Of a DNA stretch of 64,000 nucleotides, positions 5,005-49,074 are shown piece after piece. This stretch comes from an uncultured Verrucomicrobiota bacterium (GTDB lineage: Bacteria > Verrucomicrobiota > Kiritimatiellia > Kiritimatiellales > Tichowtungiaceae): assembly GCA_964398915.1 (NCBI GenBank), contig CAYNOR010000006.1:14068-78067 (forward strand). Reading direction: 5' to 3'. The position numbers and the translations under genes are program-made. The notes beneath the pieces were generated by a model, which had not been told where the DNA came from, did not search any database, and worked only from the letters and a program-made list of their open reading frames with translations. Numbering within the stretch: position 1 is the first letter of the stretch; each line of letters opens with the position of its first letter.

Positions 5005-5015
5005 TCACCTTACGT

Positions 5016-6287: not shown

Positions 6288-6443
6288 TATAGTTCCTTTC
6301 GTTCGTGGACTAAGCATATTGGCTGTTTCTGAGCAGGGCTACTTCCTCATAACCTAAAATTTAAATGCCTGAGTGGGAAGCTAGACCTTACCGGCGGGCG
6401 ATAAAAGTGGAAAGAGCAGTTTATTGTATAACCTTAGAATTCG

Positions 6444-30752: not shown

Positions 30753-33023
30753 TTATAGTCCCGCAAACGGATTGGCGGAAAATCCGCGCGGCGGCTGGCG
30801 TTGCGGAGGCTTGTTTTGCTGCGGTCGCGGTACGGAACCTTTGGCCGGAGCCGTCTTGCCGCTGTCCTTGCGGGCCGTCAGCGAAATCCGTTTGCGCTCC
30901 AGATCGACCTCCAGCACCTTCACGGTAATGCGGTCGCCCGCCTGAACCGCTTCGGACGGATCGCTGATGAACCGGTCGCAGAGCTGGGAAATGTGAACCA
31001 GTCCGTCCTGATGCACGCCGACATCGACGAACGCGCCGAAAGCGGTGACGTTGGTGACGATTCCTTTGAGTTCCATCCCTTCCTTGAGATCGTTCATGGT
31101 CATCACGTCGTCTCGGAAGCCGACGGCTTCAAACTGTTCGCGCGGATCGCGGCCCGGCTTTTTTAATTCGTCGATGATGTCCTTTAGTGTCAGCTCGCCG
31201 ACGCTGTCGCTCTTGTACTTTTCGATCTTCACTTTGCTGACGATCTCTACATTGCCGACCAGCTTGTTGAGCGGCTCGCCGAGGTCGGCGGCAATCTGTT
31301 CGACCAGTTTATAGCGTTCCGGATGAACCGCCGAGGCGTCGAGCGGATTTTCGCTACCGTGAATGCGCAGGAATCCTGCCGCCTGTTCAAAGGCGCGCGG
31401 GCCAAGGCTTGGAACTTTCGTCAGCTCCTGACGGCTTTTAAACGCACCGTGTTCATTGCGGTAGGTGACGATTTTTTTGGCGAGGCTTTCGCCGATCCCG
31501 GCGACGCGCGAGAGCAGGGGGGCGCTGGCGGTGTTGAGTTCGACGCCGACGCGGTTCACGCAACTGACGACTACTTCGTCGAGTTTGTCCTTCAGCAGTT
31601 CCTGATAGACGTCGTGCTGGTACTGCCCGACGCCGATGGATTTCGGATCGGTTTTCACCAGTTCGGCCAGCGGATCTTGAAGGCGGCGGGCAATCGAGAT
31701 CGCGCCGCGGATGGTCAGGTCGAGGTCCGGAAACTCCTCGCGGGCGATTTCCGACGCGCTGTAAACCGACGCTCCGGCCTCGCTGACGGAAACTACGCTG
31801 GTGCCGGTTTTCTTCATCAGGCTGAGCAGCTTTTTGACGAATGTTTCGGTTTCGCGTCCGGCGGTGCCGTTACCGACGGCGATGGCCTGCGGCTGGTGCT
31901 TTTCAATGAACTTCGCTAGCGTGATTTGCGCCTGCTGGGTTTTCTCCGCGCCTTGCTCAGGATAGATGGTGACGGTGTCGAGGTATTTGCCGGTGGCGTC
32001 AATGGCAACGCATTTGCAACCGGTGCGCAGACCGGGGTCGATGCCGATAACCGGCTTTTCGCCGTATGGGGCAGCCAGCAGCAGACTCCGCAGGTTTTTG
32101 GCGAAAATTTCGACGGCGGCGCGGTCGGCCTTCATTTTCATTTCGACCGACACGTCGATTTCGACGCTGAGCGTCAGCATCCGCTTGTAGGCATCCTGAA
32201 TGGTCTTTTCGAGTTCACCGGCGAACGGCGAAGCGAGGTTGAGTCCGCAAAGTTCTTTCATCCGGTTAATCTGTTTGTCGGCGTCGATCACCAGTTTGCG
32301 GCGCAGTTCACCTTCGGTTTCGCCGCGGCGGATCGCCAGGTAGCGGTGCGACGGAATGTCGGAAATCGCCTGGCTGAAGTCGAAATAGTCTTTGTACTTG
32401 GAGGTTTCCGGCTTGGCGTCGGCCTTGACCGGCTCGGAGGCGATCACGCCGGTTTTGAAATAGGCTTCGCGGATCAGCGCACGGACGTCGGCTTTTTCAG
32501 CGACCTGCTCGGCGACGATGTCGCGTGCTCCGGCCAGCGCCTCTTCGGCGGTGGCGACCTCTTTTTCCGCATTGATGAACGCGGCGGCGGCTTTCAACGG
32601 ATCACTTTCCAGTGACTGGCTGGCGATCAGTTCGGCCAGCGGTTCGAGTCCTTTTTCCTTGGCGATGGTCGCGCGGGTGCGGCGTTTCGGTTTGTAGGGC
32701 AGATAAAGGTCTTCGAGTTCGGTTTTGGAAATTGTCCGCTCGATCTGCTCGCGCAGCTCGTCGGTCAGCTTGCCCTGTTCATTGATCGAACCGAGGATGG
32801 TCACGCGGCGGGCTTCCAGCGTGTTGTAGTAAGTCAGCTTTTCCTGAATGTTCAGAATCTGCACTTCGTCGAGATTGCCGTGCGCCTCCTTGCGGTAGCG
32901 GGCGATGAACGGGACGGTTGCCCCTTCGGCGAAAAGCTGGGCGACGGCGGCCACCTGGCGCGGGCCGATGCTGAGGTCTTTGGACACAAACGGGACGGCA
33001 TCAAACAGGTTTTGCTCGGACAT
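30753..33023 (-). CDS. tex: Tex-family transcription accessory protein (YqgF/HhH/S1 domains)
   Basis: VAQLFAEGATVPFIARYRKE, GIDPGLRTGCK, and a C-terminal S1 domain GIVTNVTAFGAFVDVGVHQDGLVHISQL. The ATG is at 33021-33023. Confidence 0.9.
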   Translation of the reverse strand: MSEQNLFDAVPFVSKDLSIGPRQVAAVAQLFAEGATVPFIARYRKEAHGNLDEVQILNIQEKLTYYNTLEARRVTILGSINEQGKLTDELREQIERTISKTELEDLYLPYKPKRRTRATIAKEKGLEPLAELIASQSLESDPLKAAAAFINAEKEVATAEEALAGARDIVAEQVAEKADVRALIREAYFKTGVIASEPVKADAKPETSKYKDYFDFSQAISDIPSHRYLAIRRGETEGELRRKLVIDADKQINRMKELCGLNLASPFAGELEKTIQDAYKRMLTLSVEIDVSVEMKMKADRAAVEIFAKNLRSLLLAAPYGEKPVIGIDPGLRTGCKCVAIDATGKYLDTVTIYPEQGAEKTQQAQITLAKFIEKHQPQAIAVGNGTAGRETETFVKKLLSLMKKTGTSVVSVSEAGASVYSASEIAREEFPDLDLTIRGAISIARRLQDPLAELVKTDPKSIGVGQYQHDVYQELLKDKLDEVVVSCVNRVGVELNTASAPLLSRVAGIGESLAKKIVTYRNEHGAFKSRQELTKVPSLGPRAFEQAAGFLRIHGSENPLDASAVHPERYKLVEQIAADLGEPLNKLVGNVEIVSKVKIEKYKSDSVGELTLKDIIDELKKPGRDPREQFEAVGFRDDVMTMNDLKEGMELKGIVTNVTAFGAFVDVGVHQDGLVHISQLCDRFISDPSEAVQAGDRITVKVLEVDLERKRISLTARKDSGKTAPAKGSVPRPQQNKPPQRQPPRGFSANPFAGL

Positions 33024-33104
33024 AAGTTGGATCAATTCCTCGGTTAGCAGTTACAAAATCAGCTACCGATGGTCTTTGAAACAGGCTGGTCCGTCAAGAC
33101 GTTC
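32981..33104. repeat. direct repeat copy A: tex 5' codons plus upstream leader
   Basis: Hand alignment to 34942-35065 gives 79 of the first 90 positions identical. Confidence 0.75.
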
Positions 33105-33215
33105 TGGCGGGCGGAACGGCAGCAAAGAGTTTAAACACCCCTTTATGTCATTTTTTTTGATAAAAAAGCACTTTCGCGATAGCTTAGGTTTACCGCTCAG
33201 TGATTCCGCTGATTT

Positions 33216-33452
33216 TGACCCTCGCGAACAAAAGAGCCTTGTTTACTTGCAAGCGGTTTTTCACCTTCGTATCGTTATGCCAGTGGTAAAGGCGTTCCGC
33301 AGGATTACGTTCAGTCTTATGCATGGTGCAATATAGCGGCGGCGCCCGCAATAAAAGCGCGAGAAATCATCCTGAAAAGAATGACCCCGGCCCAGATTGA
33401 AGAAGGACAGCGGCTATCTCGGGAGTGTGTAGAGAAGTTTATTAAAAAATAG
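33216..33452 (+). pseudogene. C-terminal fragment of a Sel1-repeat protein with no start codon
   Basis: The frame opens after a TGA and reads ...YRYASGKGVPQDYVQSYAWCNIAAAPAIKAREIILKRMTPAQIEEGQRLSRECVEKFIKK*. There is no in-frame ATG and no entry in the track. Confidence 0.5.
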
Positions 33453-33488
33453 GGAGTTTTTGAAAACTCAATAAAGGAGTCACCTATT

Positions 33489-34343
33489 ATGGGCTTTCTA
33501 GCGAAGAGTGAGGCGTTTGTTTTGAAAAAAAGGGCTGAAACAGGAGATGCGATAGCACAGCACGACTTGGGGATTTGCTACGCTACAGGGAGTGGGGTTC
33601 CTCAGAATCATATAGAGGCGGTGAAATGGTACCGTCTAGCTTGTGCGCAAGGGATTCCAAACTCTCAGCACAACCTCGGTGTCTGCTACTTAGATGGCAC
33701 AGGTGTTCCGCAGGATTATAAAGAAGCTGCGAGGTGGTTCCGCCTTGCCGCTGAACAGGGCCATCCGGCGGCGCAAGCTAATCTCGGGATATGCTTCTGT
33801 TACGGGGTCGGAGTTCCGCAGGATTACATCCAAGCTTATGCGTGGCTTTCTCTTTCGGCCGACCAAGGCAATGAGATCGGTAAGTTGGAAGAGGAGAAAT
33901 TACGAAACAATATATCAACGCTGAAGTATTTAGAAGGGAGGCGGATGGCGGAGACGTATCGGGAATGTCAGTCGATTTGGAAGAAGATTAAACATGAAAA
34001 TGGTGACGTTACCATGAGCGACAAATCTACAGGTAAAATGTGGACCGGCATTGCGAACCTTGGCGGCCGCAAGCGATGGGATGATGCTTTAACCTTTTGC
34101 AAGAGCCTAACCTATGCGGGGTATTCGGACTGGCGACTGCCTAATAAAACCGAGCTCCGTGCTCAATTCCAGCACCAAAGAGAGTTTTCGGGTGTGGAGC
34201 GCGGTGGTAACTTATACTGGTCGGGAACCCTCTGTGGATATATTCCAGGTTTCGCGTGGTATGTGGATATGAACACCGGAAATGTAAGTACGCTAAGTAA
34301 GAGTTGGGATCTTTTTGTGTGGCCGGTGCGCGGCAAACAATAA
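33489..34343 (+). CDS. Sel1-repeat protein with C-terminal DUF1566 (Lcl-C-like) domain
   Basis: Repeated G(V)PQ(D/N)...A..W...A..QG units (four copies). The C-terminus has YSDWRLPNKTEL and WSGT. Confidence 0.75.
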   Translation: MGFLAKSEAFVLKKRAETGDAIAQHDLGICYATGSGVPQNHIEAVKWYRLACAQGIPNSQHNLGVCYLDGTGVPQDYKEAARWFRLAAEQGHPAAQANLGICFCYGVGVPQDYIQAYAWLSLSADQGNEIGKLEEEKLRNNISTLKYLEGRRMAETYRECQSIWKKIKHENGDVTMSDKSTGKMWTGIANLGGRKRWDDALTFCKSLTYAGYSDWRLPNKTELRAQFQHQREFSGVERGGNLYWSGTLCGYIPGFAWYVDMNTGNVSTLSKSWDLFVWPVRGKQ

Positions 34344-34366
34344 ACAACTAAAGCTAAAGGAAGAGA

Positions 34367-34750
34367 ATGAACATACCATATCTTAAAATCGATCACCGAT
34401 CAGATACGACTATTGGATTCATTTTTAGAGTAAAAACAGGGCTTTTTTCAGGATTTGATTGCGTAGGGGTGCTTTCTAACACCCGCACCCCCACAAATAA
34501 TAAAAGTGGGTGGGGTGTTTACCGGTCTCCCAGTGCTCGGAGCATTCGACATTCTTTAGAGGGAATAATAACACCGGGCTGTTTCGAGTCATCGGACAAC
34601 TCTTTTGGAGGACGGATAGAAGACGTGTGTGGAAATTTTACTTTGAGGAAATTTGATAGCAGCGACTATGCATGGCACGGTGGGTATGCTGCTTGGAAAA
34701 ATCACGACCGGCTATTCCCAAGCTCAGAGGAGGATATAGATATCGCGTAG
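34367..34750 (+). CDS. hypothetical protein
   Basis: 127-aa ORF with an upstream AAGGAAGAG Shine-Dalgarno-like sequence. I recognised no motif. Confidence 0.35.
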   Translation: MNIPYLKIDHRSDTTIGFIFRVKTGLFSGFDCVGVLSNTRTPTNNKSGWGVYRSPSARSIRHSLEGIITPGCFESSDNSFGGRIEDVCGNFTLRKFDSSDYAWHGGYAAWKNHDRLFPSSEEDIDIA

Positions 34751-34869
34751 GGGAGCCTTTCAAGATGCAGAGAGGGGTCCTTGAATCTTGATCTGCGATA
34801 GGCGGGAACCGGGCCTCATTTCCCAGGCTTCGGAAAGAAACCGGATGGGGCGGTTGTGCGGGATTTTCA

Positions 34870-34896
34870 ACGTAGATGCGACGCCCTCGTCGCATC
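34870..34896. repeat. solo REP-like unit (GTAG head plus 9-bp hairpin)
   Basis: aCGTAGATGCGACG-CCCT-CGTCGCATC, the same unit as the arms of the intragenic doublets. Confidence 0.7.
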
Positions 34897-34936
34897 CAGT
34901 TCGGAGCAGGAAACGCAGTCAGCGCCCGCGGTTACA

Positions 34937-34984
34937 GTCTGTGGAAACAAACGGAACAACATCAAAAAGGTTTTGCTCGGACAT
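34937..34984 (-). pseudogene. remnant of the tex 5' end (first 16 codons)
   Basis: Reads MSEQNLFDVVPFVSTD and reaches a stop after 5 more codons. Intact tex begins MSEQNLFDAVPFVSKD. Confidence 0.75.
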
Positions 34985-35065
34985 AAGTGAAATCAATTCC
35001 TCGGTTAGCGGTTAAAAAATCAGCCACCGATGCTCTGCAAAACCGCTCCCGAGGTCAAGCTGTTC
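34942..35065. repeat. direct repeat copy B of the tex 5' end and leader
   Basis: See copy A at 32981-33104. Confidence 0.75.
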
Positions 35066-35228
35066 CAATCATTGGGAAAATTTCACCGCGAGAGAGCGCA
35101 AGGAACGCAAAAAATTCCAGATTTTGGGAAATATGCATCAGAGTGATCTGATAACGTTCAGGGTGACTTTCGGTGCGCGTAAACCATAGACCGAATCAAC
35201 AGGCGGTTTCACCGTAAAGTCCAACCGC

Positions 35229-36173
35229 TTAGCTACCTTTATTGTTTTGTTTTGTCTGGTTCTTCTCCCATGAGTCTTCTGGCTCAATACCAAGGTCAAA
35301 CCAGATGTCCTTTCTAATGTTCCTGTTCGAAATACAGTATTTGTCACAAAGACACCCTGTTCGGCGATTATACTCTTCAACTGCTCGCTTATTATTTAAC
35401 TCTAGGTACCCATCTTTCTGTTCGTCCCACGATATTAATATGATTTGCTCGGGAGAAACTGGCAACGTAACTTCCGTTTTCTTTTGCCCCAGACCAATAT
35501 GGCGATAGAAGGGAGGAAGTTTGTGGATTTCTGGGTTAACCCATACACAAGGCGAATCAGATGTAATGAAAGTAGAAGACGAATTTGTCCCAATTATTGA
35601 AAGATGCATTTGAGCCAATAGCTCTGTTTGAGAAATTATCATTGGAAACAGCGAATTTTGCATTGGTTTTTCTGCAAGGTTACGAACCTGCTCATGCGAA
35701 AGAGATTCTCCAGAGCCAGAAGAATGTTGTGTCGCTATAAATCGCTCTGCTCCTTCTTTTGTCATTTGTTCAGCTAATGAATCCATCATCTTTAGAGCTT
35801 CGCCCCATTGATTCTGCATATGATCGCGTTGCGCTACAGTGCGACTCTTCATAGCAGCAACGAATAATAACAATTGGAATTTTTCATCAGGCAAAAGATC
35901 CATTCTGTTTGTTAATTTTTCACGACGTAATCGAGCAAAAAAACCTTCAAGTCCTGAAAGGCCATGCTCTAAGGTCAAATCTCTTTCGCCTCCGCTCCCG
36001 TGAATGGTATACATCTCGCTCTCACAAAAAATGTTTTGCGGAGCTTTGTTTTTTGAAGCAGAACCATCCTTGGCAATCATCCATACATATGGCTCATGAT
36101 TTTTTGGCGCGTCAGGATCACACCAAGCCTTGAGATATGATTCAGGTATCCAGTGCTGTTTCTTGTGCCTCAT
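35229..36173 (-). CDS. DUF4238 domain protein
   Basis: The N-terminus KKQHWIPESYLKAWCD matches the H(Y/W)(V/I)P..YL..(F/W) start of DUF4238. The gene is AT-rich. Confidence 0.6.
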   Translation of the reverse strand: MRHKKQHWIPESYLKAWCDPDAPKNHEPYVWMIAKDGSASKNKAPQNIFCESEMYTIHGSGGERDLTLEHGLSGLEGFFARLRREKLTNRMDLLPDEKFQLLLFVAAMKSRTVAQRDHMQNQWGEALKMMDSLAEQMTKEGAERFIATQHSSGSGESLSHEQVRNLAEKPMQNSLFPMIISQTELLAQMHLSIIGTNSSSTFITSDSPCVWVNPEIHKLPPFYRHIGLGQKKTEVTLPVSPEQIILISWDEQKDGYLELNNKRAVEEYNRRTGCLCDKYCISNRNIRKDIWFDLGIEPEDSWEKNQTKQNNKGS

Positions 36174-36397
36174 GTTTTTTATTCGTAGCTAACAGTTTGT
36201 TAGGCAGAAACGGACTCTGCTTATCACGGGGATTTCGGTGTTCGGCAGAAACCTGCCGATCCGGAGTCCGAAGCCGGATTGCTTATAGCAGTCTGGGGAG
36301 GGGCGTTCAATCTTTCATCCGCCTCCGCCGACGGGCTACGGCGCGACACGAAGGGTGGAAAAAATCTTGGCGGCTCTGCGCCTCTTTGCGCGAGGAA

Positions 36398-36571
36398 TTT
36401 CCAATGTTTGGAAAAGTGCGGGGTAAAAGTTCCGAACATTGGAAAAACATGGTTGCTACCCGCTGGTAGGGACGGTTCGCCGAACTGTCCGCGGCGCGCT
36501 CGGCGAGCACGCCCTACCTTCTTCTTCCAAGCATTGGAAAAGTTGGGCAAAAAGTTCCAAACATTGGAAAA
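36398..36571. repeat. two copies of a composite module made of TTCCAA-N3-TTGGAA type palindromes around a GC-rich imperfect palindrome
   Basis: TTTCCAATGTTTGGAAAAGTgcGGggtAAAAGTTCCGAACATTGGAAAA (36398-36446) versus CTTCCAAGCATTGGAAAAGTtgGGcaAAAAGTTCCAAACATTGGAAAA (36524-36571). Between them lies GGTAGGGACGGTTCGCCGA...TCGGCGAGCACGCCCTACC. Confidence 0.7.
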
Positions 36572-36700
36572 TGAGTCTGTGCGCCGAGCGGCGTTTTCTT
36601 ATTAAAAACCCTATCCAAAAGCGGGATGGACGGCTATTTTCCGGATGTGGAAAAGTTAGACAGACTTTATAACCAAAAGTATCAACAGGAGACATCAGTC

Positions 36701-37552
36701 ATGAGTGCTGAAAAGACAACCAAGCTGACCGTGTTTGAAGGTAAGCATATCCGCAAGGTTCTTCACGGCGGCGAATGGTGGTTTTCGGTTATTGATGTTA
36801 TTGAGGTGCTGGTCGGTGGGGATCGTCCTCGCAAATACTGGAATGACTTGAAGAAGAAGCTGTTACAAGAGGGCTATATTGAACTGTCCGATAAAATCGG
36901 ACAGTTGAAAATGCCAGCACCGGACGGGAAACAACGTCTGACCGACTGCGCTAATACGGAGACGATGTTCCGTATCATCCAGTCCATTCCTTCGCCTAAA
37001 GTCGAGCCGCTCAAACGCTGGCTGGCCCGGGTCGGCAAAGAGCGCATCGACGAGATCGAAAACCCCGAACTGGCTATGGCCCGGATGCAGGAACTTTATG
37101 AAAAGAAGGGCTACCCCAAGGAGTGGATTGATAAGCGGCTGAGGGGCATTGCCGTCCGGCAGGATTTGACCGACGAATGGAAAAACCGGGGTGCCCGAAC
37201 CGCTTTGGAATACGCGCTTCTGACCAACGAGATCATGCAGGGGACTTTTGATCTGAAAGTTGAGGAATATAAGCAGATCAAAAATATCGACCGTGAAAAC
37301 CTGCGCGATCACATGACCGATATTGAGTTGATCCTGACTATGCTGGGTGAGGCGACCACCACGAAAATTCACCGGGATCTTGATTCTCAGGGCTTAATTC
37401 CGCTAACAAAAGATGCCCGGGATGGCGGGGCGGTGGCGGGCAGAACACGGAAGGATATTGAGGCTCAGACCGGCAATCCGGTCATCTCAGCCGGCAACTT
37501 CAAAAAACTGTCCGCAAAGAAGTCGAAAAAGTCGCCTGAGAATGAGGGGTAA
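36701..37552 (+). CDS. Bro-N domain protein (phage antirepressor / DinD-like family)
   Basis: FEGKHIRKVLHGGEWWFSVIDVIEVL (Bro-N), then KRWLARVGKERIDEIENPE...LTDEW...YALLTNEI. AGGAGA lies 7 nt before the ATG at 36701. Confidence 0.7.
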   Translation: MSAEKTTKLTVFEGKHIRKVLHGGEWWFSVIDVIEVLVGGDRPRKYWNDLKKKLLQEGYIELSDKIGQLKMPAPDGKQRLTDCANTETMFRIIQSIPSPKVEPLKRWLARVGKERIDEIENPELAMARMQELYEKKGYPKEWIDKRLRGIAVRQDLTDEWKNRGARTALEYALLTNEIMQGTFDLKVEEYKQIKNIDRENLRDHMTDIELILTMLGEATTTKIHRDLDSQGLIPLTKDARDGGAVAGRTRKDIEAQTGNPVISAGNFKKLSAKKSKKSPENEG

Positions 37553-40700: not shown

Positions 40701-40782
40701 AGGGGTCAAAGGCGCGACGCGCATCAACACAGCAATTTCTGATTTGGTGAAGCCTTTCAAAAAGACACTGTACGGAATATAG
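37780..40782 (+). CDS. purL: phosphoribosylformylglycinamidine synthase, PurS-like N-domain fused to PurL
   Basis: 1000 aa, with HNSPSALDPFGGSMTG, DNGAGGISCS and SGKDS. Confidence 0.9.
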   Translation: MIYRIEIGLKQGVPDARGRGVIGRAKSALGMKIKGCQTRDVYKVDANIKRAEAKAVQLGFADAVVARSALGRLKAPGSFDWMLEIGFKPGVTDNVGRTARGAMADILGRELAWEEQVYTLIQYFLKGDLTREDVLHLGKDLLANTLIQTIQVFSKEEWLAAEPDMTAPIFDDHQEVKVNVIELPDNDAALMKISSDGILSLSLEEMRVIRNHYLSDAVKAHRAELGMPVWPTDVELECIAQTWSEHCSHKVFAGTIEYKDEETGKEEIINSLYKTYVKASTKKVAEKIDWLVSVFTDNAGVIKFNEDLHLVYKVETHNSPSALDPFGGSMTGIVGVNRDPMGTGMGAQLVSNVWGYCLGSPFYDKEIPAGLMHPRRIRDGVHAGVIAGGNESGIPWSRGFECFDERYLGKPLVYCGTMGTLPVNVGGRPSERKEVQVGDWTVMCGGRIGKDGIHGATFSSEELRTESPAQAVQIGDPLTQRKLYEFLMEARDLGLFRCITDNGAGGISCSFGEMGKYSGGCECELKDAPLKYEGLQPWEILVSEAQERMTLAVQPECRSAFEALAKKRDVEVSFMGTYNDSGYFTVKYEGKVVASLDMDFLYETGCPKLHMKGVWKKPEVPAPEKAKGGNRTKSLRQMMGRLNICSREYKSRIYDGEVKGLSVVKPFVGVNADVPSDATVMRIEYNKDRGAILAEGINPWFSDIDTYHMTASVIDESIRRVISVGGRLDRIAILDNFCWPDPVQSPKTPDGEYKMAQLVRSNKALYDYTIAFGTPAVSGKDSCKNDSTRGGKKISIPPTLLISSIGQIDDVKKAVTMPLKETGSLIYMVGVTKNELGASEWNRMLAEEQGNPWNYGGDVPTVDAASALAIYRAMNKAQDEGILLSSHTPSKGGLAIGFALICMGGGLGAEIDLAKVPTPGKRKLKDDSILFSESNSRFIVSVKPENAAKFEALFSGLPVAQIGTVTADKKLVVKGVKGATRINTAISDLVKPFKKTLYGI

Positions 40783-40821: not shown

Positions 40822-41382
40822 ATGCACGGCAAAGACGATTTAATTAAGGCGCACGGCGGCTACCGTGATCTGAAGTCGTTTCAGATGTCTGAAATCGTGT
40901 TTGATGGGACCGTGAAGTTTTGCGAGCGCTTCGTGGATCGTTTTTCCCGCACAACGGATCAGATGATTCAGGCCGCCCGATCCGGCAGGCAGAACATCGC
41001 CGAAGGATCGCAGGTCTCCGGAACCTCCAAGAAAACTGAACTGAAGCTGGTCAGTGTGGCTCGCGGCAGTTTGGAAGAACTTCTGCTCGACTACGAAGAT
41101 TTTCTGCGCCAGCGCGAGCTGAAGAAATGGGAGAAAGATTCCAAAGAAGCGTTGTTCGTGCGCAAACTTGGCAAGCAGGAGGATAGGTCTTATAGGACTT
41201 ATAAGACCTATCTCGAGACCCGCCCGGCCGAAGTTTGTGCGAACATCCTGATCTGCCTGATTTATCAGGCCAATTATCTGCTCGACCAGCAGCTCAAAGC
41301 GCTTGAGACGGATTTTCTCGAAGAAGGCGGCTTCACTGAACGCCTTTACAACTCCCGTCGCCGCAAGAGGGGAGATGGATGA
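40822..41382 (+). CDS. four-helix-bundle protein (23S-rRNA-IVS / Avd-like fold) with the four-helix-bundle suffix domain
   Basis: SRTTDQMIQAARSGRQNIAEGS and ARGSLEELLLDYEDFLRQR. Confidence 0.7.
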   Translation: MHGKDDLIKAHGGYRDLKSFQMSEIVFDGTVKFCERFVDRFSRTTDQMIQAARSGRQNIAEGSQVSGTSKKTELKLVSVARGSLEELLLDYEDFLRQRELKKWEKDSKEALFVRKLGKQEDRSYRTYKTYLETRPAEVCANILICLIYQANYLLDQQLKALETDFLEEGGFTERLYNSRRRKRGDG

Positions 41383-41606
41383 ATACTCAGGCACAAGCTG
41401 AAGATATTTGGCAGTACGGCACCTACGAAGGTGAGGAGAAGCTTCGTATGCAGCAGGAGCGAAAACTTTCGCTCGCACAAAAGCTGGATTTGCTGGATGA
41501 AATGATCGACTTCGCCACGAGCACCCACGGCACCCAAATGCTGGTTCGTGAGGATTCTCCCGGTTACGGTACCTTTGCCAAAAAAACAAAATCGGATGAT
41601 TCGTGA
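41379..41606 (+). CDS. hypothetical 75-aa protein
   Basis: ATGA overlap with the upstream gene. It contains SLAQKLDLLDEMIDFA. Confidence 0.4.
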   Translation: MNTQAQAEDIWQYGTYEGEEKLRMQQERKLSLAQKLDLLDEMIDFATSTHGTQMLVREDSPGYGTFAKKTKSDDS

Positions 41607-41842
41607 TGAATAAGGACGTACTCAAGATTCTAAAGCAGGCCTCGCCGGAAGATTTCGACGGACATACGGCGTTTGCGAGAATGACACCCGATCAGCGTCT
41701 AACATGGCTTGAAGAAGCCAATGCCGCCTATTTCGAGCTACACGGACGCGCCGTGCCGGAACTTCGCGTAAAATTGACACCGACCTCGACTCGCTCCGCA
41801 AACCGTTCAAGAAAACGCTCTATGGGATATAGATCTTTTTGA
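41603..41842 (+). CDS. hypothetical 79-aa protein; its 3' end reads through the purL remnant in another frame
   Basis: ATGA overlap with the upstream gene. TPDQRLTWLEEANAAY resembles the motif of the preceding ORF. Confidence 0.35.
   Translation: MMNKDVLKILKQASPEDFDGHTAFARMTPDQRLTWLEEANAAYFELHGRAVPELRVKLTPTSTRSANRSRKRSMGYRSF
41767..41832 (+). pseudogene. remnant of a diverged purL 3' end
   Basis: Translates RKIDTDLDSLRKPFKKTLYGI*, compared with TRINTAISDLVKPFKKTLYGI* at 40720-40782. The last 10 codons encode identical residues but 8 of them differ at synonymous sites. Confidence 0.75.
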
Positions 41843-41908: not shown

Positions 41909-42169
41909 CTAAATCATATCGAGTGCCATTCGCCGTGTCTCTCTGGCATCGGAGTCGCCAGAAGTTGCAAGTTTATCTACGATGTATGCGAGAGCTTCGG
42001 TATAACCGTATTCGCCGAGCTTTTTCAGTGCGGCACGTCTGGTTTCGCGCGCATCAGAATCGCCGCTTGTCGCGTACTTCATAACAATTCGAAGAAGTTC
42101 TGCACATCTGGTGTCTGCTTCGATCCCGCCAAATTCGACTAACGTGATTCTGGGCATGAAACTCTCCAT
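41909..42169 (-). CDS. small HEAT-like repeat protein
   Basis: Internal duplication ATSGDSDARETRR(A/M)AL, present twice. Confidence 0.45.
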   Translation of the reverse strand: MESFMPRITLVEFGGIEADTRCAELLRIVMKYATSGDSDARETRRAALKKLGEYGYTEALAYIVDKLATSGDSDARETRRMALDMI

Positions 42170-42198
42170 TCTTGTTTCAAAACCGGTGCAGATTAGGA

Positions 42199-42822
42199 CT
42201 ATCTTCGCTTGGAATTCCGCATGACTTTTCTGCCTGCCAAGAGCACACCTGCACCTGAAGCCAAAAGTCCAATAGTCATGGGTTCGGGAATTGCCACTGG
42301 CACATTAATTTGGGCGATTTGGGTTGCTCCTGAGTTAGCAAAACCTTGAATTCCAACCTGCTCTTGACCAATTATTCGATCTGCATCAATCAAAGCACGG
42401 AAATAGTGGAGATCATTTCCTCTGATGGGCTCGTTTCCAGGTAGATTAGCCACCCAAGAATAGTTGCCATTATCTTCGCCGGAACTCCACTTTGTAAAAC
42501 TAGGAAGATCAAAATTATTGTCATAATTGTTATTACTGAAACCATACATTCCTCTTTGTGCTAAATCTGCACCAATAGTTACTTTCCATAAGGCATCTTC
42601 CGTATAATCACCTGCTGGAGGGTCTTGGTTTCTTATTCGCCATTCATACATCAGCTGAATTCCTTCCCGGGCCGTATCCATGTCTTGAGAGTCGTAAACC
42701 GTTGTTTGGATGTAATCAAGATTAAGAACTTTGTCCGCCCGCACCTTCATAGGCACCAAAGCGGCGAGCGCTAGCGCAACCAAAACATTTGAGAACATAA
42801 ACGCGCGAATTGTCTTGTTCAT
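42199..42822 (-). CDS. PEP-CTERM sorting-domain secreted protein
   Basis: Signal peptide MNKTIRAFMFSNVLVALALAALVPMKVRA. The C-terminus reads PEPMTIGLLASGAGVLLAGRKVMRNSKRR. Confidence 0.75.
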   Translation of the reverse strand: MNKTIRAFMFSNVLVALALAALVPMKVRADKVLNLDYIQTTVYDSQDMDTAREGIQLMYEWRIRNQDPPAGDYTEDALWKVTIGADLAQRGMYGFSNNNYDNNFDLPSFTKWSSGEDNGNYSWVANLPGNEPIRGNDLHYFRALIDADRIIGQEQVGIQGFANSGATQIAQINVPVAIPEPMTIGLLASGAGVLLAGRKVMRNSKRR

Positions 42823-43005
42823 AAACGCCCCTCTTTTCTGTTTGCGCAGACGGTAATCACATCTTTTCATCCGGTCAAGTTCAGATCGAGTCAGCACGCA
42901 TGTTCGTCAATAATCACTCTGGTATTTAAGAGTTTACATCCGTTATGTCGGCTGTTATAGCGACGTGGTCTATTGAGCCAAACCTTTGTTTGAAAGGGCT
43001 GCTTT

Positions 43006-44031
43006 ATGGCGACAGAACATTCGTACGACTATATCGTTACTCCTTATCCAGAGTATTGGGCGAAGAAGCTACATGTCGCCTATCCTATTTTATGGGGGCT
43101 TTTTTCCGGAGCTTTGTTTTGTCTGCAACTCGGAACGCTTTTACTTGCCGGTGAAAGAGAGCGTCTGATTTGCAGCTCAGTTTGGCCGTATGTCGCACTC
43201 AGCCTGCTTCCTGCAATCCTGGCGATCACCATAGTCCGGTTTTCAAAAATTCTGGAAGATTTCTCTCCATCTCTTATGTCCTTTGTGACTTGGCCAAAAG
43301 AGAAAGCACTCGACTGGTACTCCGGGCAGGTTCGTAAGATTTTCGATACGCGTCGCATGTGCATCGTCGGCCTTTGTTTCATTTGCAGCCTTCTTTATGT
43401 GACGCTTAACAGCCCCGTTCTGCCCTCCGCCACTGCGCCACGAATTGTTTTTCTGATCATCATGCTGGCGATTCAGTTTTTTGGCGGCGGAATGCTTTAT
43501 GTGATGTGGCACATAGCCCGGATGATCCGGGAGCTCGGACAAATTGATGCGATTAAGATTTCAGTGTACCAGCACCCCATGTCCAGTGTGAAAGCGGTGG
43601 GGGTGTTGATGGCTAAAGTGGCATTCACCATCGTGCTGATTTATCTATTTGGCATTTCGTACAGCATGTTCTGCACGCCGACCAAAGCTGTTTTGGCCAC
43701 GAACTTTATATTCGGCCTGATCGTCTTGTTCTTTTTTATTTTTCCGCAGATGGAGATTCACCGATTGATGGTCAAAGTAAAGCATCAGCGCTTGATACAG
43801 TTTTCCGGTCATTTGGAAAACGCCTTGCAACAGGTTGCAGAGAATCCATCAGGGGAAGCTGCCCAGCATGTCAAGGAGCTGTTTGATATCCAGAATTCTC
43901 TCAATGAAATGGGTGAGTGGCCGTTTAACACCAAAATGTTTATGACCATTTTTACTGGGATAGCCGTTCCCCTACTGGCGGTTCTTCTCCAGATCGCCTG
44001 TCAGTGGATAGAAAAGGTGGTTTCGCCTTAA
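43006..44031 (+). CDS. polytopic membrane protein, function unknown
   Basis: Six to seven hydrophobic segments. I recognised no motif. Confidence 0.5.
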   Translation: MATEHSYDYIVTPYPEYWAKKLHVAYPILWGLFSGALFCLQLGTLLLAGERERLICSSVWPYVALSLLPAILAITIVRFSKILEDFSPSLMSFVTWPKEKALDWYSGQVRKIFDTRRMCIVGLCFICSLLYVTLNSPVLPSATAPRIVFLIIMLAIQFFGGGMLYVMWHIARMIRELGQIDAIKISVYQHPMSSVKAVGVLMAKVAFTIVLIYLFGISYSMFCTPTKAVLATNFIFGLIVLFFFIFPQMEIHRLMVKVKHQRLIQFSGHLENALQQVAENPSGEAAQHVKELFDIQNSLNEMGEWPFNTKMFMTIFTGIAVPLLAVLLQIACQWIEKVVSP

Positions 44032-44052
44032 AATCGTGGCGGGGGATATCAC

Positions 44053-44670
44053 ATGGTACGTCGTTGCACACACATCTATCTGATTCGTCACGGCGAAAGC
44101 ATCCACAATGCGGACAGGAATAGATTTTCGGGAGTAACGGATATCCCCCTCTCCGAGAATGGAAAGAGGCAGTGTGCAGAAATGGCAACCTCACCTCTTT
44201 GGAGTGATATCGACAGCATATGGAGCAGTCCTCTCGAACGGGCTATCGACAGTGCCAAGCTTATTTTCCCGGACAGACAGGATTGCATAGAAACAGTTCC
44301 CAGCCTGATTGAATTTGATTACGGCAAATATGAAGGTAAATTGCCTGCCGAGTTGCCTTCGGACGACCCTGTAACTGTTCAGTGGGAATCGGATCCGACT
44401 CATCTCGCTTTTCCCGGCGGCGGTAACATCTCTGAACATGCTGACAGGGTGTGCGACGATTTGTTGAGATTGCTTGACCGTGCCGGCGACAGCAAGATAG
44501 CTGCCGTTTCCCACCGCACTACAATCCGGCTGTTGATCGCCAAAATCATGCATATTCCTCTACGATATTTCCGCGACATTCCTTGCGAGAATTGTAGCGT
44601 TACCGCGCTGACCTATTGCGACCGAAAATTGTCTCTCAAGAATCTGAATCTTAAACTGAGGTGTATATGA
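44053..44670 (+). CDS. histidine phosphatase (phosphoglycerate-mutase-like / CobC-like) family protein
   Basis: IYLIRHGESIHN catalytic RHG motif, and a later SHRTTIR. Confidence 0.75.
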   Translation: MVRRCTHIYLIRHGESIHNADRNRFSGVTDIPLSENGKRQCAEMATSPLWSDIDSIWSSPLERAIDSAKLIFPDRQDCIETVPSLIEFDYGKYEGKLPAELPSDDPVTVQWESDPTHLAFPGGGNISEHADRVCDDLLRLLDRAGDSKIAAVSHRTTIRLLIAKIMHIPLRYFRDIPCENCSVTALTYCDRKLSLKNLNLKLRCI

Positions 44671-45272
44671 GTCTGGCATCTGTTCTTAACTGGGCGGGTT
44701 ATATTTTTGCAGTCATAGGCCTTCTTGCGACGGTTTACAAATCTGTGACCGCTTGGCTAAGTTTAAAGACATTCAATTGGAAAGAATTCGACCGGATTGC
44801 CAAGCGGGTGATTGCAAAAATAGCTGCGGATAAATTTTATCCGGACGTAATCGTGACGATTGGGCGAGGCGGCGCGATTCTCGGAGCCGTTTTGTCGGGA
44901 AATCTTCCCGATGTGGGGCATCCGCTAAAAACGAAAAAGCGAAACATTCCGATTCTTGGAACGGACAGGCTTTACAAATGGGAAGATGGAAATCGTATCG
45001 AAATTCCGAATGAGATGGTGAGCTTTTTTCCACTTAGAGGGAAGAAAGTGTTAATTGTTGCCGCTGATGTTTTGTCTGGCGGCACAATGGAGTTTTTTGC
45101 AGAGCAAATCAGCGTGATTCAGCCCGCCGTGTTAAGGACGGCATGTCTGGTTAAAGGAATCACTTCAACTTTTGTTCCGAATTATTACGGCAAGGAAATT
45201 CCTGCCGATTTCAAGATGCCGTGGATGTACAAGGGATTTGGATACAGTCGGGATTCTCGGAAACCAAACTAA
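44661..45272 (+). CDS. membrane-anchored type I phosphoribosyltransferase-like protein with a divergent PRPP loop
   Basis: N-terminal TM segment, PDVIVTIGRGGAILG, and VLIVAADVLSGGTM in place of the canonical VLIVDDxxDTGxT. It overlaps the upstream gene by 10 nt. Confidence 0.55.
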   Translation: MYMSLASVLNWAGYIFAVIGLLATVYKSVTAWLSLKTFNWKEFDRIAKRVIAKIAADKFYPDVIVTIGRGGAILGAVLSGNLPDVGHPLKTKKRNIPILGTDRLYKWEDGNRIEIPNEMVSFFPLRGKKVLIVAADVLSGGTMEFFAEQISVIQPAVLRTACLVKGITSTFVPNYYGKEIPADFKMPWMYKGFGYSRDSRKPN

Positions 45273-45315: not shown

Positions 45316-47079
45316 ATGCTAATAATTATCCAACACAGTGACGGCTGGCTTCGATTTGAGAAGCCGGTCGAAGTGCTGACGGCGCGCGCATCGGATGAAG
45401 TTTTCCAATGTCTGGAAAAAATTGAAGCCAGCGGTTTGTGGGCCGCCGGATTTATTTCCTACGAAGCCGCCGGCGCGTTTGATTCCGTATTGAAAACGCG
45501 CGCGACGGGTAATCTGCCGCTTCTGCAGTTCGGGCTTTTTAAAAATGTGGAAACCCACCCCGGCCTGCGGCCACCCCTCCATGGGAGGGGATTGTATCAA
45601 CTCGGCGAATGGACGCCGTCGGTGACGCGCGGAGAATATTCCGAAGCAATTGCGAAAATCAAAGAGCACATTGCGGCGGGCGACACGTATCAGGTGAATT
45701 ACACCTTCCGGCTGAATGCCGATTTTTCCGGTTCGCCGTTCGACTTTTTTTGCGATTTGGCCGTCGCCCAGCAGGGCAGTTATGCCGCCTTTATAGAAAC
45801 CAATGAGTTCGCTATCTGTTCGGCTTCGCCGGAACTTTTTTTCGAACTCAAAGACGGCGTGATTACATCGCGTCCGATGAAAGGCACCCTGCCGCGCGCG
45901 TTGACGGCGGAGGCGGATCGCGCCGCCGCTGAAGCACTGAAGAATTCGGCGAAAGATCGTGCGGAAAATATTATGATCGTCGATATGATCCGCAACGATA
46001 TCGGGCGCATTGCTGAGGCGGGAAGTGTCGAAACGCTCAGCCGGTTCGATGTCGAAAAATATCCGACTGTCTGGCAGTTGACTTCGACGGTGCGAGGAAA
46101 TGTAGACGCGACGCCCTCGTCGCGTTTCCCATCTGGAATAAAACGCGACGAGGGCGTCGCGTCTACGTTGAGACCTCTGTTTACGGCGTTATTTCCCTGC
46201 GCATCGATTACCGGCGCGCCGAAGGCGAAGACGATGGAGATTATCCAAGGTTTGGAGAAGTCGCCGCGCGGCGTTTATACCGGAGCGATTGGTTTTATTG
46301 CGCCGGACGGTTCAGCTCAGTTCAATGTTGCGATCCGGACAGCCGTGGTGGATCGGAGTGCTGGAGTGGTGGAGTACGGGATTGGCGGGGGGATTGTTTG
46401 GGACTCTGATCCGGATCAGGAATATCAGGAAGCCATGTCCAAAGCGGCGATCCTGACGAAAAAGATGCCGCAGTTTCAGTTGCTGGAAACGATGCTTTGG
46501 GAGGATGGAGAAATCTTTCTGCTGGAGCGCCACCTGAAACGGCTGGCGGAGTCGGCGGAGTATTTTGACGTCAAAATCGATCTGAATGAAATCCGCGACC
46601 ATCTGCGCCATCTGCGGTTTGAATATCCAACACGAATCCGGCTGTTGTTGAGCCGGGACGGGCAATTTAAGGTGGAAGCGGCATCCTGCTGCTGGACTCA
46701 GCGGCAGGATGCCGCTTCCACACTGGCGCTTGCGAAGCGTCCGGTCGATTCCGGGGATGTTTTCCTTTATCACAAGACGACGAACCGCTCGGTTTATGAA
46801 AAAGCGAAGGCGGACTTTCCGGAGGCCGACGACGTATTGCTGTTTAATGAGCGCGGCGAGGTGACGGAGAGCTGTATGGCCAACATCGTGGTCGAGCTGG
46901 ACGGGCGCAAGGTGACGCCGCCGGTCTCCTGCGGGCTGCTTGCGGGAACGTTCCGCGACGAACTGCTCGCAAAGGGCGAGATTGAGGAGCGGGCCATTAC
47001 ACTGGATGATTTAATGCGTGCCGACTCCGTCTGGTTGATCAATTCGGTGCGGCGATGGCAAGTCGCCAGCCTGCTCTAA
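45316..47079 (+). CDS. pabB: aminodeoxychorismate synthase component I fused to an aminotransferase class IV (ADC lyase-like) domain
   Basis: FPCASITGAPK, RGVYTGAIGF and GGGIVWDSDP, followed by a class IV-like C-terminal half (FLYHKTTNR). Confidence 0.85.
   Translation: MLIIIQHSDGWLRFEKPVEVLTARASDEVFQCLEKIEASGLWAAGFISYEAAGAFDSVLKTRATGNLPLLQFGLFKNVETHPGLRPPLHGRGLYQLGEWTPSVTRGEYSEAIAKIKEHIAAGDTYQVNYTFRLNADFSGSPFDFFCDLAVAQQGSYAAFIETNEFAICSASPELFFELKDGVITSRPMKGTLPRALTAEADRAAAEALKNSAKDRAENIMIVDMIRNDIGRIAEAGSVETLSRFDVEKYPTVWQLTSTVRGNVDATPSSRFPSGIKRDEGVASTLRPLFTALFPCASITGAPKAKTMEIIQGLEKSPRGVYTGAIGFIAPDGSAQFNVAIRTAVVDRSAGVVEYGIGGGIVWDSDPDQEYQEAMSKAAILTKKMPQFQLLETMLWEDGEIFLLERHLKRLAESAEYFDVKIDLNEIRDHLRHLRFEYPTRIRLLLSRDGQFKVEAASCCWTQRQDAASTLALAKRPVDSGDVFLYHKTTNRSVYEKAKADFPEADDVLLFNERGEVTESCMANIVVELDGRKVTPPVSCGLLAGTFRDELLAKGEIEERAITLDDLMRADSVWLINSVRRWQVASLL
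46102..46166. repeat. REPIN-like inverted REP doublet inserted in-frame in pabB
   Basis: GTAGACGCGACGCCCTCGTCGCGTT-spacer-AACGCGACGAGGGCGTCGCGTCTAC, translated as VDATPSSRFPSGIKRDEGVAST. Confidence 0.8.
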
Positions 47080-47178
47080 CCGGTTGTTCCATCAGGATGG
47101 TCGTTGTTAGCGTTGTTTTGACAGTCGTTCGCGCGGCGTTTAGCATGCTGGCATTTCATGCTAAAGGATTGGAGATTT

Positions 47179-47847
47179 ATGAAGGCATTTCAAATCGGGT
47201 TGATGGTTCTTCTGTTCGCAGGGATCGTTTGCGGCCAGCCGCTGGAGATCACTGCTTATGATCCGGTGAGCGGGGAGGTGAAAATCAAAGACGGGTCGGG
47301 GAGTGCCACCCGGCTGTTCGACACATTCAGTGCGGAAGAACAACAGCAAATTACCGAATGGCTGGCGGATAAGGAGTTTAGAAAATTAAAAATAACGATC
47401 CAAAAAGAAAGCAAGAAGGAATATAAAGAAGAATCTTTCTTCACGTCCGGCAGTATTAAGAAGGTGTCATATAGTATAACGGTGAAAAATCCTGCACAGA
47501 TCGAATTCAAGGATCTCGAGCTGGTCTGCCGCATATTTTGTGAAACGAAAGGAGGGAAAGTGGATCGACCATGGGGCGTGGAGGACAAAAAAAAATTCAC
47601 AATTGCACCCGGTGAAACCCAGCGGTTTGAGCAGTCTGTGGGGATTCGTGACCAAAAAACTGAATTTGAATCTTACCGCGACTCCTCATGGAATTCCGCA
47701 GTGGTTTCTCCGGAGGATATAATCATAAAGGATAAGCTTCTGGGTTTGTACTTGTGCATCAGTAAAAAAGGTCGGAATGGGAAGGTCATGAAACTGGAGC
47801 AGGAAGCGGGCCATATCCCCGATGAGAAAAAATGGTCGCAGTATTGA
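47179..47847 (+). CDS. secreted hypothetical protein
   Basis: Signal peptide MKAFQIGLMVLLFAGIVCG, with GGAG 8 nt upstream of the start. Confidence 0.5.
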   Translation: MKAFQIGLMVLLFAGIVCGQPLEITAYDPVSGEVKIKDGSGSATRLFDTFSAEEQQQITEWLADKEFRKLKITIQKESKKEYKEESFFTSGSIKKVSYSITVKNPAQIEFKDLELVCRIFCETKGGKVDRPWGVEDKKKFTIAPGETQRFEQSVGIRDQKTEFESYRDSSWNSAVVSPEDIIIKDKLLGLYLCISKKGRNGKVMKLEQEAGHIPDEKKWSQY

Positions 47848-47880
47848 CCTTTGGTTCAGCCAAAAACAACGACTTCCCGC

Positions 47881-48864
47881 ATGCCGGAAAATGTTTCTGC
47901 TGACCGAAAAAACAGCGGAAAGGCAAGCGCGGAGGGCCTGGTGTTCGCGGAGGGCGGAACTTTTATAATGGGCGGGGGGGATGTATCCGATGACATGCTG
48001 CGGGGTGAAGATGAACTTCCCGCTCATTCCATAACGTTAGATTCGTTTGAGATCGCAAAATATGAAACCACTCATGAAGAAGTGTTCCGGGTTTTAAGCT
48101 GGGCTCTTAAAGGCGGAAAGGTATGGCTGAAAGGGAATACCGGCAAAGGATACGGAGCCATGGTGTATCTGTCTGCCGGGAAAAAGAAACAGCTTCTGCG
48201 CACGTATATAGTCGGGGTTTCGTGTGACGACAATGGACTTGTGTTAAAGCGAGGGTGGGAGAATCACCCCTGCTCTCAAGTCACCTGGTACGGTGCAGCA
48301 GCTTACTGCAATTTCCGTTCCGAGATGGAGGGGCTGGCTCCCTGTTATGACATGGAGAAGGGTTGGGAATGTAATTTTAAGGCAAGCGGGTATCGGCTGC
48401 CGACCGAAGCCGAGTGGGAATATGCCGCGAGAGGCGGGGCGTCCGGAAGGGGAACTATATACAGCGGGTCTGATTCTCTTGAAGATGTCGGGTGGTGTAA
48501 TCAAAAACAGACGACAGTGGATTACCGGACAACGGAGATTAAGATTAGGCAGGATGATGACCGGGAGCAACCCGTTGGAACCAAAGAGCCCAATGAACTG
48601 GGGATCTATGATATGAGCGGCAATGTGTCGGAGTGGTGTAACGATTGGTACGGAGAATACGATGACAAAGCGCAGACAAACCCTGTTGGGGAAAAACGCG
48701 GGAAGAGTCGTGTTGTGCGAGGTGGGAGTTATATTGATTCACCACAGTTTTGCCGAGTTTCGGCCCGGCGGAACGAAGACCCGGACAGGGGCGTTTCAGG
48801 GCTGGGGTTACCTGACGGCGGATTTCGTGTTGTTAAACCGGTTCCTAAAAATTCCGGCGATTAA
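47881..48864 (+). CDS. formylglycine-generating-enzyme (SUMF1/FGE-sulfatase) family protein
   Basis: GYRLPTEAEWEYAARGG, GNVSEWCNDWY and RVVRGGSY. The start is uncertain (TTG at 47851 or ATG at 47881). Confidence 0.8.
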   Translation: MPENVSADRKNSGKASAEGLVFAEGGTFIMGGGDVSDDMLRGEDELPAHSITLDSFEIAKYETTHEEVFRVLSWALKGGKVWLKGNTGKGYGAMVYLSAGKKKQLLRTYIVGVSCDDNGLVLKRGWENHPCSQVTWYGAAAYCNFRSEMEGLAPCYDMEKGWECNFKASGYRLPTEAEWEYAARGGASGRGTIYSGSDSLEDVGWCNQKQTTVDYRTTEIKIRQDDDREQPVGTKEPNELGIYDMSGNVSEWCNDWYGEYDDKAQTNPVGEKRGKSRVVRGGSYIDSPQFCRVSARRNEDPDRGVSGLGLPDGGFRVVKPVPKNSGD

Positions 48865-48890
48865 TTGCAGCCATGAAGGCGGCCCGGGTG

Positions 48891-49074
48891 CAAGGTGACG
48901 CCGCCGGTCTCCTGCGGGTTGCTTGCGGGAACGTTCCGCGACGAACTGCTCGAAAAGGGCGAGATTGAGGAGCGGGCTGTCTCACTTAGTGACCTGAAAC
49001 GGGCAAAAGCTGTCTGGCTGATAAATTCTGTTCGCAAATGGCGGAGGGTTTCTGTTAACTGGACGGCCTTATGA
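48891..49074 (+). pseudogene. remnant of the pabBC 3' end, with its stop overlapping the purQ ATG
   Basis: 85 of 88 nt are identical to 46908-46995, followed by a diverged tail encoding ...AVSLSDLKRAKAVWLINSVRKWRRVSVNWTAL*. Its TGA (49072-49074) overlaps the purQ ATG (49071-49073). Confidence 0.85.

Follow-up and report, generated by a model that had tools for sequence, protein, structure and literature searches.

The stretch of DNA analysed here, which we call the window, is 64 kb of metagenome-derived sequence from an uncultivated freshwater member of the Pontiellaceae (Kiritimatiellales), and this report concerns the 5' end of its tex gene, which occurs twice, on either side of a small group of accessory genes (an islet). 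tex lies on the minus strand at 30753-33023 and, counted from the ATG at 33023, encodes a Tex/YqgF/HHH/S1 RNA-binding transcription accessory protein of 756 aa with a complete set of Pfam domains (Tex_N, Tex_central_region, Tex_YqgF, HHH_3, HHH_9 and S1). The protein is 88-94% identical to Tex of Pontiellaceae and Kiritimatiellales genomes assembled from lake metagenomes. Related loci used in the comparisons carry the labels L001, L002, L003 and so on. Two of them, L001 and L002, come from one metagenome-assembled genome (JBIIYG01, a Lake Mendota bin) with two distinct tex genes on separate contigs, whose proteins are 93% and 91% identical to that of the window, which suggests that the bin is a mixture of two related strains or species.

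The copy of the tex 5' end that is contiguous with tex (P, proximal; 32973-33117, minus strand) and the copy stranded beyond the islet (D, distal; 34934-35078, minus strand) align with each other. A repeat search of the window paired 32976-33082 with 34937-35043 over 107 nt, free of gaps and with 91/107 positions identical (85%), and BLAST of the window against itself returned 32976-33075 and 34937-35036 at 87% identity with an E value of 7e-28. Alignment software thus finds the similarity that a preliminary description of the locus had reported from hand alignment, namely that the tex start, its first 16 codons and its leader occur twice around a 1.8 kb insert, and the 79 identical positions in 90 counted there (32981-33070 against 34942-35031) are exact on recount. 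Random pairs of 90-mers from the window average 22.6 matches (sd 4.3, max 42). The longest identical run in P and D is 21 nt and spans the ATG (33007-33027). The leader had been put at about 50-80 nt; homology to the tex upstream regions of relatives lengthens both copies to approximately 145 nt (32973-33117 and 34934-35078), the CTTGAC box included, and the identity of the repeat is 72-85% depending on the span taken (107-145 nt), with 14/35 identities between P and D in their outer 35 nt.

Read in the direction of tex, each copy has two conserved elements, a CTTGAC box approximately 75 nt before the start codon and a GGTTTTxxAGAxCATCGG block, followed by a Shine-Dalgarno-like GAGGA, the ATG itself and 16 tex codons. 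In P the TTGAC box is at 33093-33098 and homology to the upstream regions of relatives ends at about 33104-33117; from its position and its intact conserved blocks, P is presumably the copy placed to drive tex. In D the promoter-like box and leader are followed by an ATG (34984) and a frame that reads MSEQNLFDVVPFVSTD. Homology to tex stops after codon 16, whereas the reading frame goes on, so that the ATG and stop described earlier for this copy are both present, with five unrelated codons (CNRGR) between codon 16 and the stop at 34919-34921, in a dead-end open reading frame (ORF) of 21 codons (34919-34984). Directly upstream of the D promoter lies an element resembling repetitive extragenic palindromes (REP-like; TTCCCAATGATTGGAA ... 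GCGAGAGAGCGCAAGGAACGCAAAA; 35079-35140). The same TTCCCAATGATTGGAA element holds the same position upstream of tex in L003, L004, L017 and L101, and window positions 35066-35118 are 92% identical to L017. Because this element adjoins the tex promoter in those four relatives, D stands in the ancestral upstream context. No Rfam family was found in 32800-35400, folding of the leaders gave unremarkable z-scores, and a scan with consensus promoters and terminators missed the conserved TTGAC block and gave no terminator.

The insert that separates the copies (33118-34933, approximately 1.8 kb) has its genes on the plus strand, opposite to tex, and a GC content of 0.45-0.50 against 0.59 for tex. The Sel1 gene fragment, Sel1/DUF1566 gene and small ORF listed in the preliminary description were all recovered. 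The first is the 3' remnant of a Sel1-repeat gene (33217-33452, plus strand), consisting of the last repeat and C-terminal tail with no start codon, and it matches the neighbouring Sel1 gene with a BLASTP E value of 1e-08. The second, at 33489-34343 (plus strand), encodes 284 aa with Sel1 repeats (Pfam, 4.9e-39) and Lcl_C, the former DUF1566 (7.6e-20); a search with this protein returned generic multi-repeat Sel1 proteins only and no orthologue with context. The third, an ORF of 127 aa (34367-34750, plus strand), was called as a gene in one Logan assembly and has no match in Pfam, PHROG or PADLOC. A REP-like palindrome (GCGACGCCCTCGTCGC; 34865-34895), 97% identical to a copy at 60028-60058, lies just inside the right end of the insert. 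The insert has no terminal inverted repeats, no integrase or transposase was found in it or in the other islets of the window (Pfam, PHROGs, PADLOC), and the 64 kb contain no tRNA gene. No viral contig was found with the insert genes or with a mimic of the tex 5' end or the pabBC 3' end (see below), and a scan of metagenome contigs for the 19-nt core around the ATG gave 15 loci, all chance matches and none similar to the window.

P and D were compared with relatives in an alignment of 129 positions that starts 81 nt upstream of the ATG and ends at codon 16. P agrees with the tex leader of L101 at 117/129 positions overall and 37/40 in the outer promoter, and with D at 102/129 and 25/40, respectively. 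The best match of D in the outer promoter is L001 (34/40; 94/130 overall); D is 80% identical to L101 over 142 nt, and D and L017 have GGTTTTGCAGAGCATCGG and GATTTCACTTATG in common. At 18 of the 27 positions where P and D differ, both states are present among the orthologous leaders of six relatives, and private changes among the 27 number four in D, three of them clustered in codons 9-10, and five in P. Since a drifting stranded copy would carry mostly private changes, D is not a decaying copy of P. On these comparisons P and D are two distinct alleles of the 5' region of tex, for each of which other lineages have counterparts that are as close or closer, and the term duplication used earlier is right for the geometry of the repeat but not in the sense of a segment copied in place and then drifting. 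The lineage affinity of each copy is the same on either side of the 21-nt block, that of D being to L001, L003 and L004 and that of P to L002, L017 and L101, at few informative sites. When only five relatives were available, the P leader and the D coding part had seemed unique at invariant sites, and hybrid copies formed by a Campbell-type crossover at the ATG were considered; the idea was dropped when L101 removed most of the "unique" changes of P.

Comparison with relatives for an uninterrupted tex upstream region, as proposed in the preliminary description, gave no second tex 5' end within 8 kb of tex in any of 30 Kiritimatiellales tex loci. The insert of the window is absent upstream of tex in all relatives compared, no homologue of its genes was found near tex in approximately 100 related loci, and the duplication is private to the lineage of the window. 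What stands upstream of tex is an ankyrin-repeat gene in L017, two small genes followed by BroN and purL in L001, a LacI-type regulator and others in L003, RecA and DUF347 in L101, and ETF genes in L102; because these genes differ in every relative, the tex upstream region is a variable hotspot. tex itself is a mosaic relative to the seven relatives compared, with separate 120-nt windows nearest to differing relatives, each of which is approximately 88% identical overall, and this mosaic suggests that homologous exchange occurs at tex.

Two more stranded gene ends lie within 16 kb, the 3' end of pabBC before purQ and the 3' end of purL. The last 158 nt (46902-47059) of the pabB-pabC fusion gene (45316-47079, plus strand) recur at 48885-49042 (self-BLAST E value 3e-39). 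The functional copy, F (46880-47079, plus strand), has the tail WQVASLL before its stop. The stranded copy, S (48885-49074, plus strand), represents the ancestral 3' end of pabBC: its tail, ...RKWRRVSVNWTAL, is the ancestral one and is widespread, and its stop codon, TGA, shares bases with the ATG of purQ (49071); the same 4-nt overlap of pabBC and purQ (ATGA) is found in L105 and L108, and from S through purQ to ilvC the window is collinear with L108 (89%). Between F and S, the latter just before purQ, lies a second islet of 1.98 kb (47080-48884, plus strand) and lower GC, with an ORF of 229 aa (weak KilA-N match) and an FGE-sulfatase-domain gene (Pfam). F and S are identical at 85/88 positions (97%) in their left part, where relatives reach only 82-85%, and at 42/68 (62%) in their right part, where F is L107-like (55/68). 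Only in these left 88 nt of pabBC (85/88) are two copies mutual closest relatives; at tex they are not. The pabBC gene of the window is 77-81% identical to those of relatives as against 88-89% for its flanks, and its origin as a foreign whole-gene xenologue was rejected: because all lineage pairs are 75-81% identical in pabBC, it is a fast-evolving gene and not a foreign copy.

The purL remnant (41776-41831, plus strand) consists of 56 nt (...DTDLDSLRKPFKKTLYGI and the stop) located 1 kb downstream of the functional purL stop (40782), between islets at 40840-41625 and 41909-45272 that split the ancestral purL-pabBC junction. It agrees with the purL ends of L107 and L105 at 47/56 and 46/56 positions, respectively, and with the purL end of the window itself (40727-40782) at only 32/56, too diverged for detection by self-BLAST; the latter end agrees with L108 at 49/56. 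In all three cases, judged from these alignments, the used end and the stranded end are of different allele classes, and the stranded end keeps the ancestral neighbour. No core motif common to the three junction sets was found.

The account that we favour, with moderate confidence, is that the tex locus is a recombination scar rather than a mobile element or a functioning device, formed when an accessory islet was gained beside a conserved gene by recombination with DNA of a related lineage and an illegitimate join at the far end. It draws on the repeat, on P and D being alleles, on the ancestral surroundings of D, on the recurrence at pabBC and purL and on the fact that recombinase genes are missing, and from these observations we infer the recombination route, its polarity and the active promoter. 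DNA of a related lineage would have entered the cell with its tex 5' end and promoter joined to its own accessory genes and would have paired with the resident chromosome through tex homology, and its non-homologous far end would then have been joined illegitimately inside the resident tex end, at codon 16. The product would be, in order, tex, the incoming promoter allele (P), the islet, the resident allele with 16 codons (D) and the resident flank. Because a full 5' end and promoter stay attached, tex is intact, and D is left as a dead end. Such an event could be named homology-facilitated illegitimate recombination, or it may have been a two-step process of homologous recombination and an illegitimate join; the polarity is possibly the opposite one, in which case D and the right flank would have come in, with their anchor on the BroN/purL side. 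The stranded 3' ends of pabBC and purL may have arisen by the same process, and the near-identity of the left 88 nt at pabBC could reflect a join staggered across a replicating chromosome or, alternatively, homologous replacement of the gene body at a later time, which would have stopped where the alleles became too divergent.

Processes of this kind are known. One-sided homology with an illegitimate join has been demonstrated in transformable bacteria (cited in PMC2884548). Transformation experiments in Acinetobacter, Pseudomonas stutzeri and Streptococcus pneumoniae have shown homology-facilitated illegitimate recombination, which is also discussed as a source of integrase-free variable segments (PMC2884548). 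The window resembles these cases in having foreign DNA at a mosaic conserved anchor gene with no mobile-element genes, in a far-junction microhomology of 3 nt at most and in material apparently derived from a related lineage. It differs in having a partial duplicate of the anchor gene end in place of a deletion, and in that the event would be one deduced from a natural uncultivated genome, not observed in the laboratory. Many transfer hotspots also lack mobile-element genes and show raised homologous recombination in the flanking core genes (PMC5635113). The low-GC islets between tex, purL, pabBC and purQ, which differ in every relative, are like such hotspots, as are the lack of integrases and the mosaic flanking core gene. 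Double homologous recombination is scarless, however, whereas the window has stranded ends at three junctions, and because these remnants of the other allele class mark all three, at least one end of each event was non-homologous.

Several points weigh against the scar account. The allele comparisons cover seven relatives and approximately 130 nt. The leaders of P, D and L101 have an 8-nt insertion in common that is lacking in L017, L002 and L003, and L001 and L004 differ at that site in another way; the shared insertion could reflect common descent of the two copies or gene conversion, and because P, D and L101 share it, the lineages involved must be close. Neither a donor genome, in which a P-type leader would be followed directly by the Sel1 remnant, nor an empty-site genome of the same species was found. 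The illegitimate junction shares only GTC, 3 nt (32973-32975 and 34934-34936), which is near chance. Laboratory events of such a kind usually delete recipient DNA and leave no partial duplicate; because a partial duplicate is what is present, a replicating chromosome or a second recombination step must be assumed. Finally, natural competence or another transfer route would have to be assumed for the organism.

The alternative that survives best, though we consider it unlikely, is that the insert is a decayed or trans-mobilised site-specific integrative element that targets the tex 5' end, P and D being its attL and attR; an element of this type has a surrogate gene end within its attachment site. 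The insert has direct repeats of the target gene end on both sides, tex keeps a complete ORF, and the 21-nt identical block over the ATG could serve as a crossover core. The prophage e14, 15 kb long, has a site-specific recombination system of its own. Where e14 and phage 21 integrate at the icd 3' end of Escherichia coli (PMC13626634, and Hill et al. 1989 cited there), the gene end is complete with a stranded fragment beyond the insert, as at tex, and the two copies of the gene end likewise differ by substitutions; e14 is flanked by icd and the stranded icdC 3' fragment and excises after SOS induction (PMC13626634). The inserts of the window, by contrast, are only about 1.8-2 kb long and have no recombinase, one of them is at a 5' end and involves a promoter, and the gene-adjacent copy resembles what another lineage carries as its ordinary chromosomal allele. 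An integrase could have been lost by deletion, given that the Sel1 gene adjoining P is truncated, and phage-like or defence-like neighbours are present (a BroN gene, PADLOC PDC-S13, 4e-113, and a DUF4238 gene); however, no recombinase gene is present in the insert or in the other islets of the 64 kb, and neither the insert genes nor a mimic of the tex 5' or pabBC 3' end occurs in any viral contig found. The promoter part of P, which on this reading would have come with the element, agrees at 37/40 positions with the ordinary chromosomal tex leader of L101, which has no insert. At the few informative sites, neither P nor D changes its lineage affinity across the presumed core, so that they do not look hybrid. 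Insertion with the repeat was found in 0/30 related tex loci, the three junction sets have no common core, and an attachment site would not readily account for a pabBC repeat that is 97% identical over 88 nt and then falls to 62% over the next 68.

Improbable, in our view, is an in situ duplication, in which template switching or unequal exchange would have copied approximately 145 nt together with a foreign insert, followed by divergence and later gene conversion or allele replacement. The gap-free alignment over 107 nt would fit such an origin, as would the host-type REP palindrome inside the insert and the left 88 nt of the pabBC pair, which at 97% identity are as expected of a true duplication. 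P and D also share, besides the 8-nt insertion, a C-to-T change (CGGC to CGGT), both of which are absent in L017, L002 and L003, but the insertion is present in L101 too. P is nearer to L101 (117/129) than to D (102/129), the outer parts of P and D agreeing at 25/40, and the private changes are balanced (D 4, P 5) and not piled up in the stranded copy, while 18/27 of the differences are shared polymorphisms. Lineages as close to the window as the copies are to each other lack the structure.

We regard as highly doubtful a reading of the islets as integrase-free cassettes that home to conserved gene ends, with the surrogate gene end they carry (promoter and first codons, or last codons and stop) serving as a homology arm. 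Host recombination, or a recombinase whose gene lies elsewhere, would move such cassettes, the target gene would never be inactivated, and the three junctions within 16 kb would represent one system instead of separate accidents.

An assembly artefact, which the preliminary description had named as a refuting outcome, is very unlikely; it would mean that the assembly had joined two variants of the region upstream of tex, from different strains, in tandem. The sequence does derive from metagenome assemblies, and two Logan contigs stop within P (window positions 32986 and 33000), which may reflect a branch in the assembly graph. The Sel1/Lcl_C protein is, however, encoded on six contigs in public assemblies, and the four that were compared (one JGI, one ENA MEGAHIT and two Logan contigs from two runs) represent four assemblies, three pipelines and at least two sequencing runs. 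Over the insert and its junctions all four have the sequence of the window (100% identity), so that independent assemblies agree on the arrangement; the JGI and ENA contigs cover the whole structure of tex, P, insert and D. The longest exact run in P and D, at 21 nt, is shorter than the k-mers used in assembly, the insert genes are intact, and both flanks are collinear with relatives. A transposon or insertion sequence with target-site duplication was rejected, as there is no transposase, there are no terminal inverted repeats, and the repeat is 107-145 nt long and only 72-85% identical.

Other features of the window were recorded alongside these. The REP-like family, which has a palindrome ACGTAGACGCGACGCCCTCGTCGCGT and a TTTCCAATGTTTGGAAAA motif, is found at 34865-34895, 46095-46170, 60028-60101, 60321-60401 and 61027-61099, and also at 35079-35140, 36381-36415 and 60341-60375, and one type lies directly upstream of the tex promoter in several relatives. 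The copy at 46095-46170 (GCGACGCCCTCGTCGC ... GCGACGAGGGCGTCGC) is an inverted repeat located in frame inside the chorismate-binding domain of pabBC, at approximately codons 261-285. L108 also has a palindrome at this place, but its sequence is different, with changes in one arm matched by changes in the other; the palindrome of L105 is shorter and partial, and L001 has an unrelated short segment there. The BroN-domain and DUF4238 genes lie at 36626-37552 and 35229-36173, respectively. The BroN-domain protein matches the PADLOC candidate defence family PDC-S13 (E value 4e-113) and in L001 is encoded next to purL, with 95% identity; the DUF4238 gene has a weak match to DUF4238-Pers. From its gene content the tex-purL interval looks like a small defence-type islet region. 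Elsewhere, a low-GC (0.44-0.46) gene pair on the minus strand at 2521-6317, encoding a UvrD/REP-type helicase of 827 aa and a protein of 433 aa with no Pfam match, may be another accessory or defence-type islet.

Recognisable mobile elements are missing from most transfer hotspots of bacterial genomes, and the entry of genes into them has been argued mainly from statistics; the window holds what would be physical scars of such entry at three adjacent junctions. They would show directly, at the sequence level, that an islet comes in together with the end of the adjoining gene from a related lineage, and that the exchange is non-homologous on one side. The process is of a known kind, here visible with unusual clarity in an uncultivated lineage, and the mechanism is not new. 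Short dead-end ORFs such as that of D will face gene callers and pangenome tools at sites of this kind. For the organism, the promoter that now precedes tex may be an imported allele. The promoter box and leader of D look intact and, if active, would give rise to a 21-codon peptide and to antisense RNA across the islet, and direct repeats of 107 nt and 85% identity could occasionally delete the islet by homologous recombination, which would leave tex with a hybrid leader.

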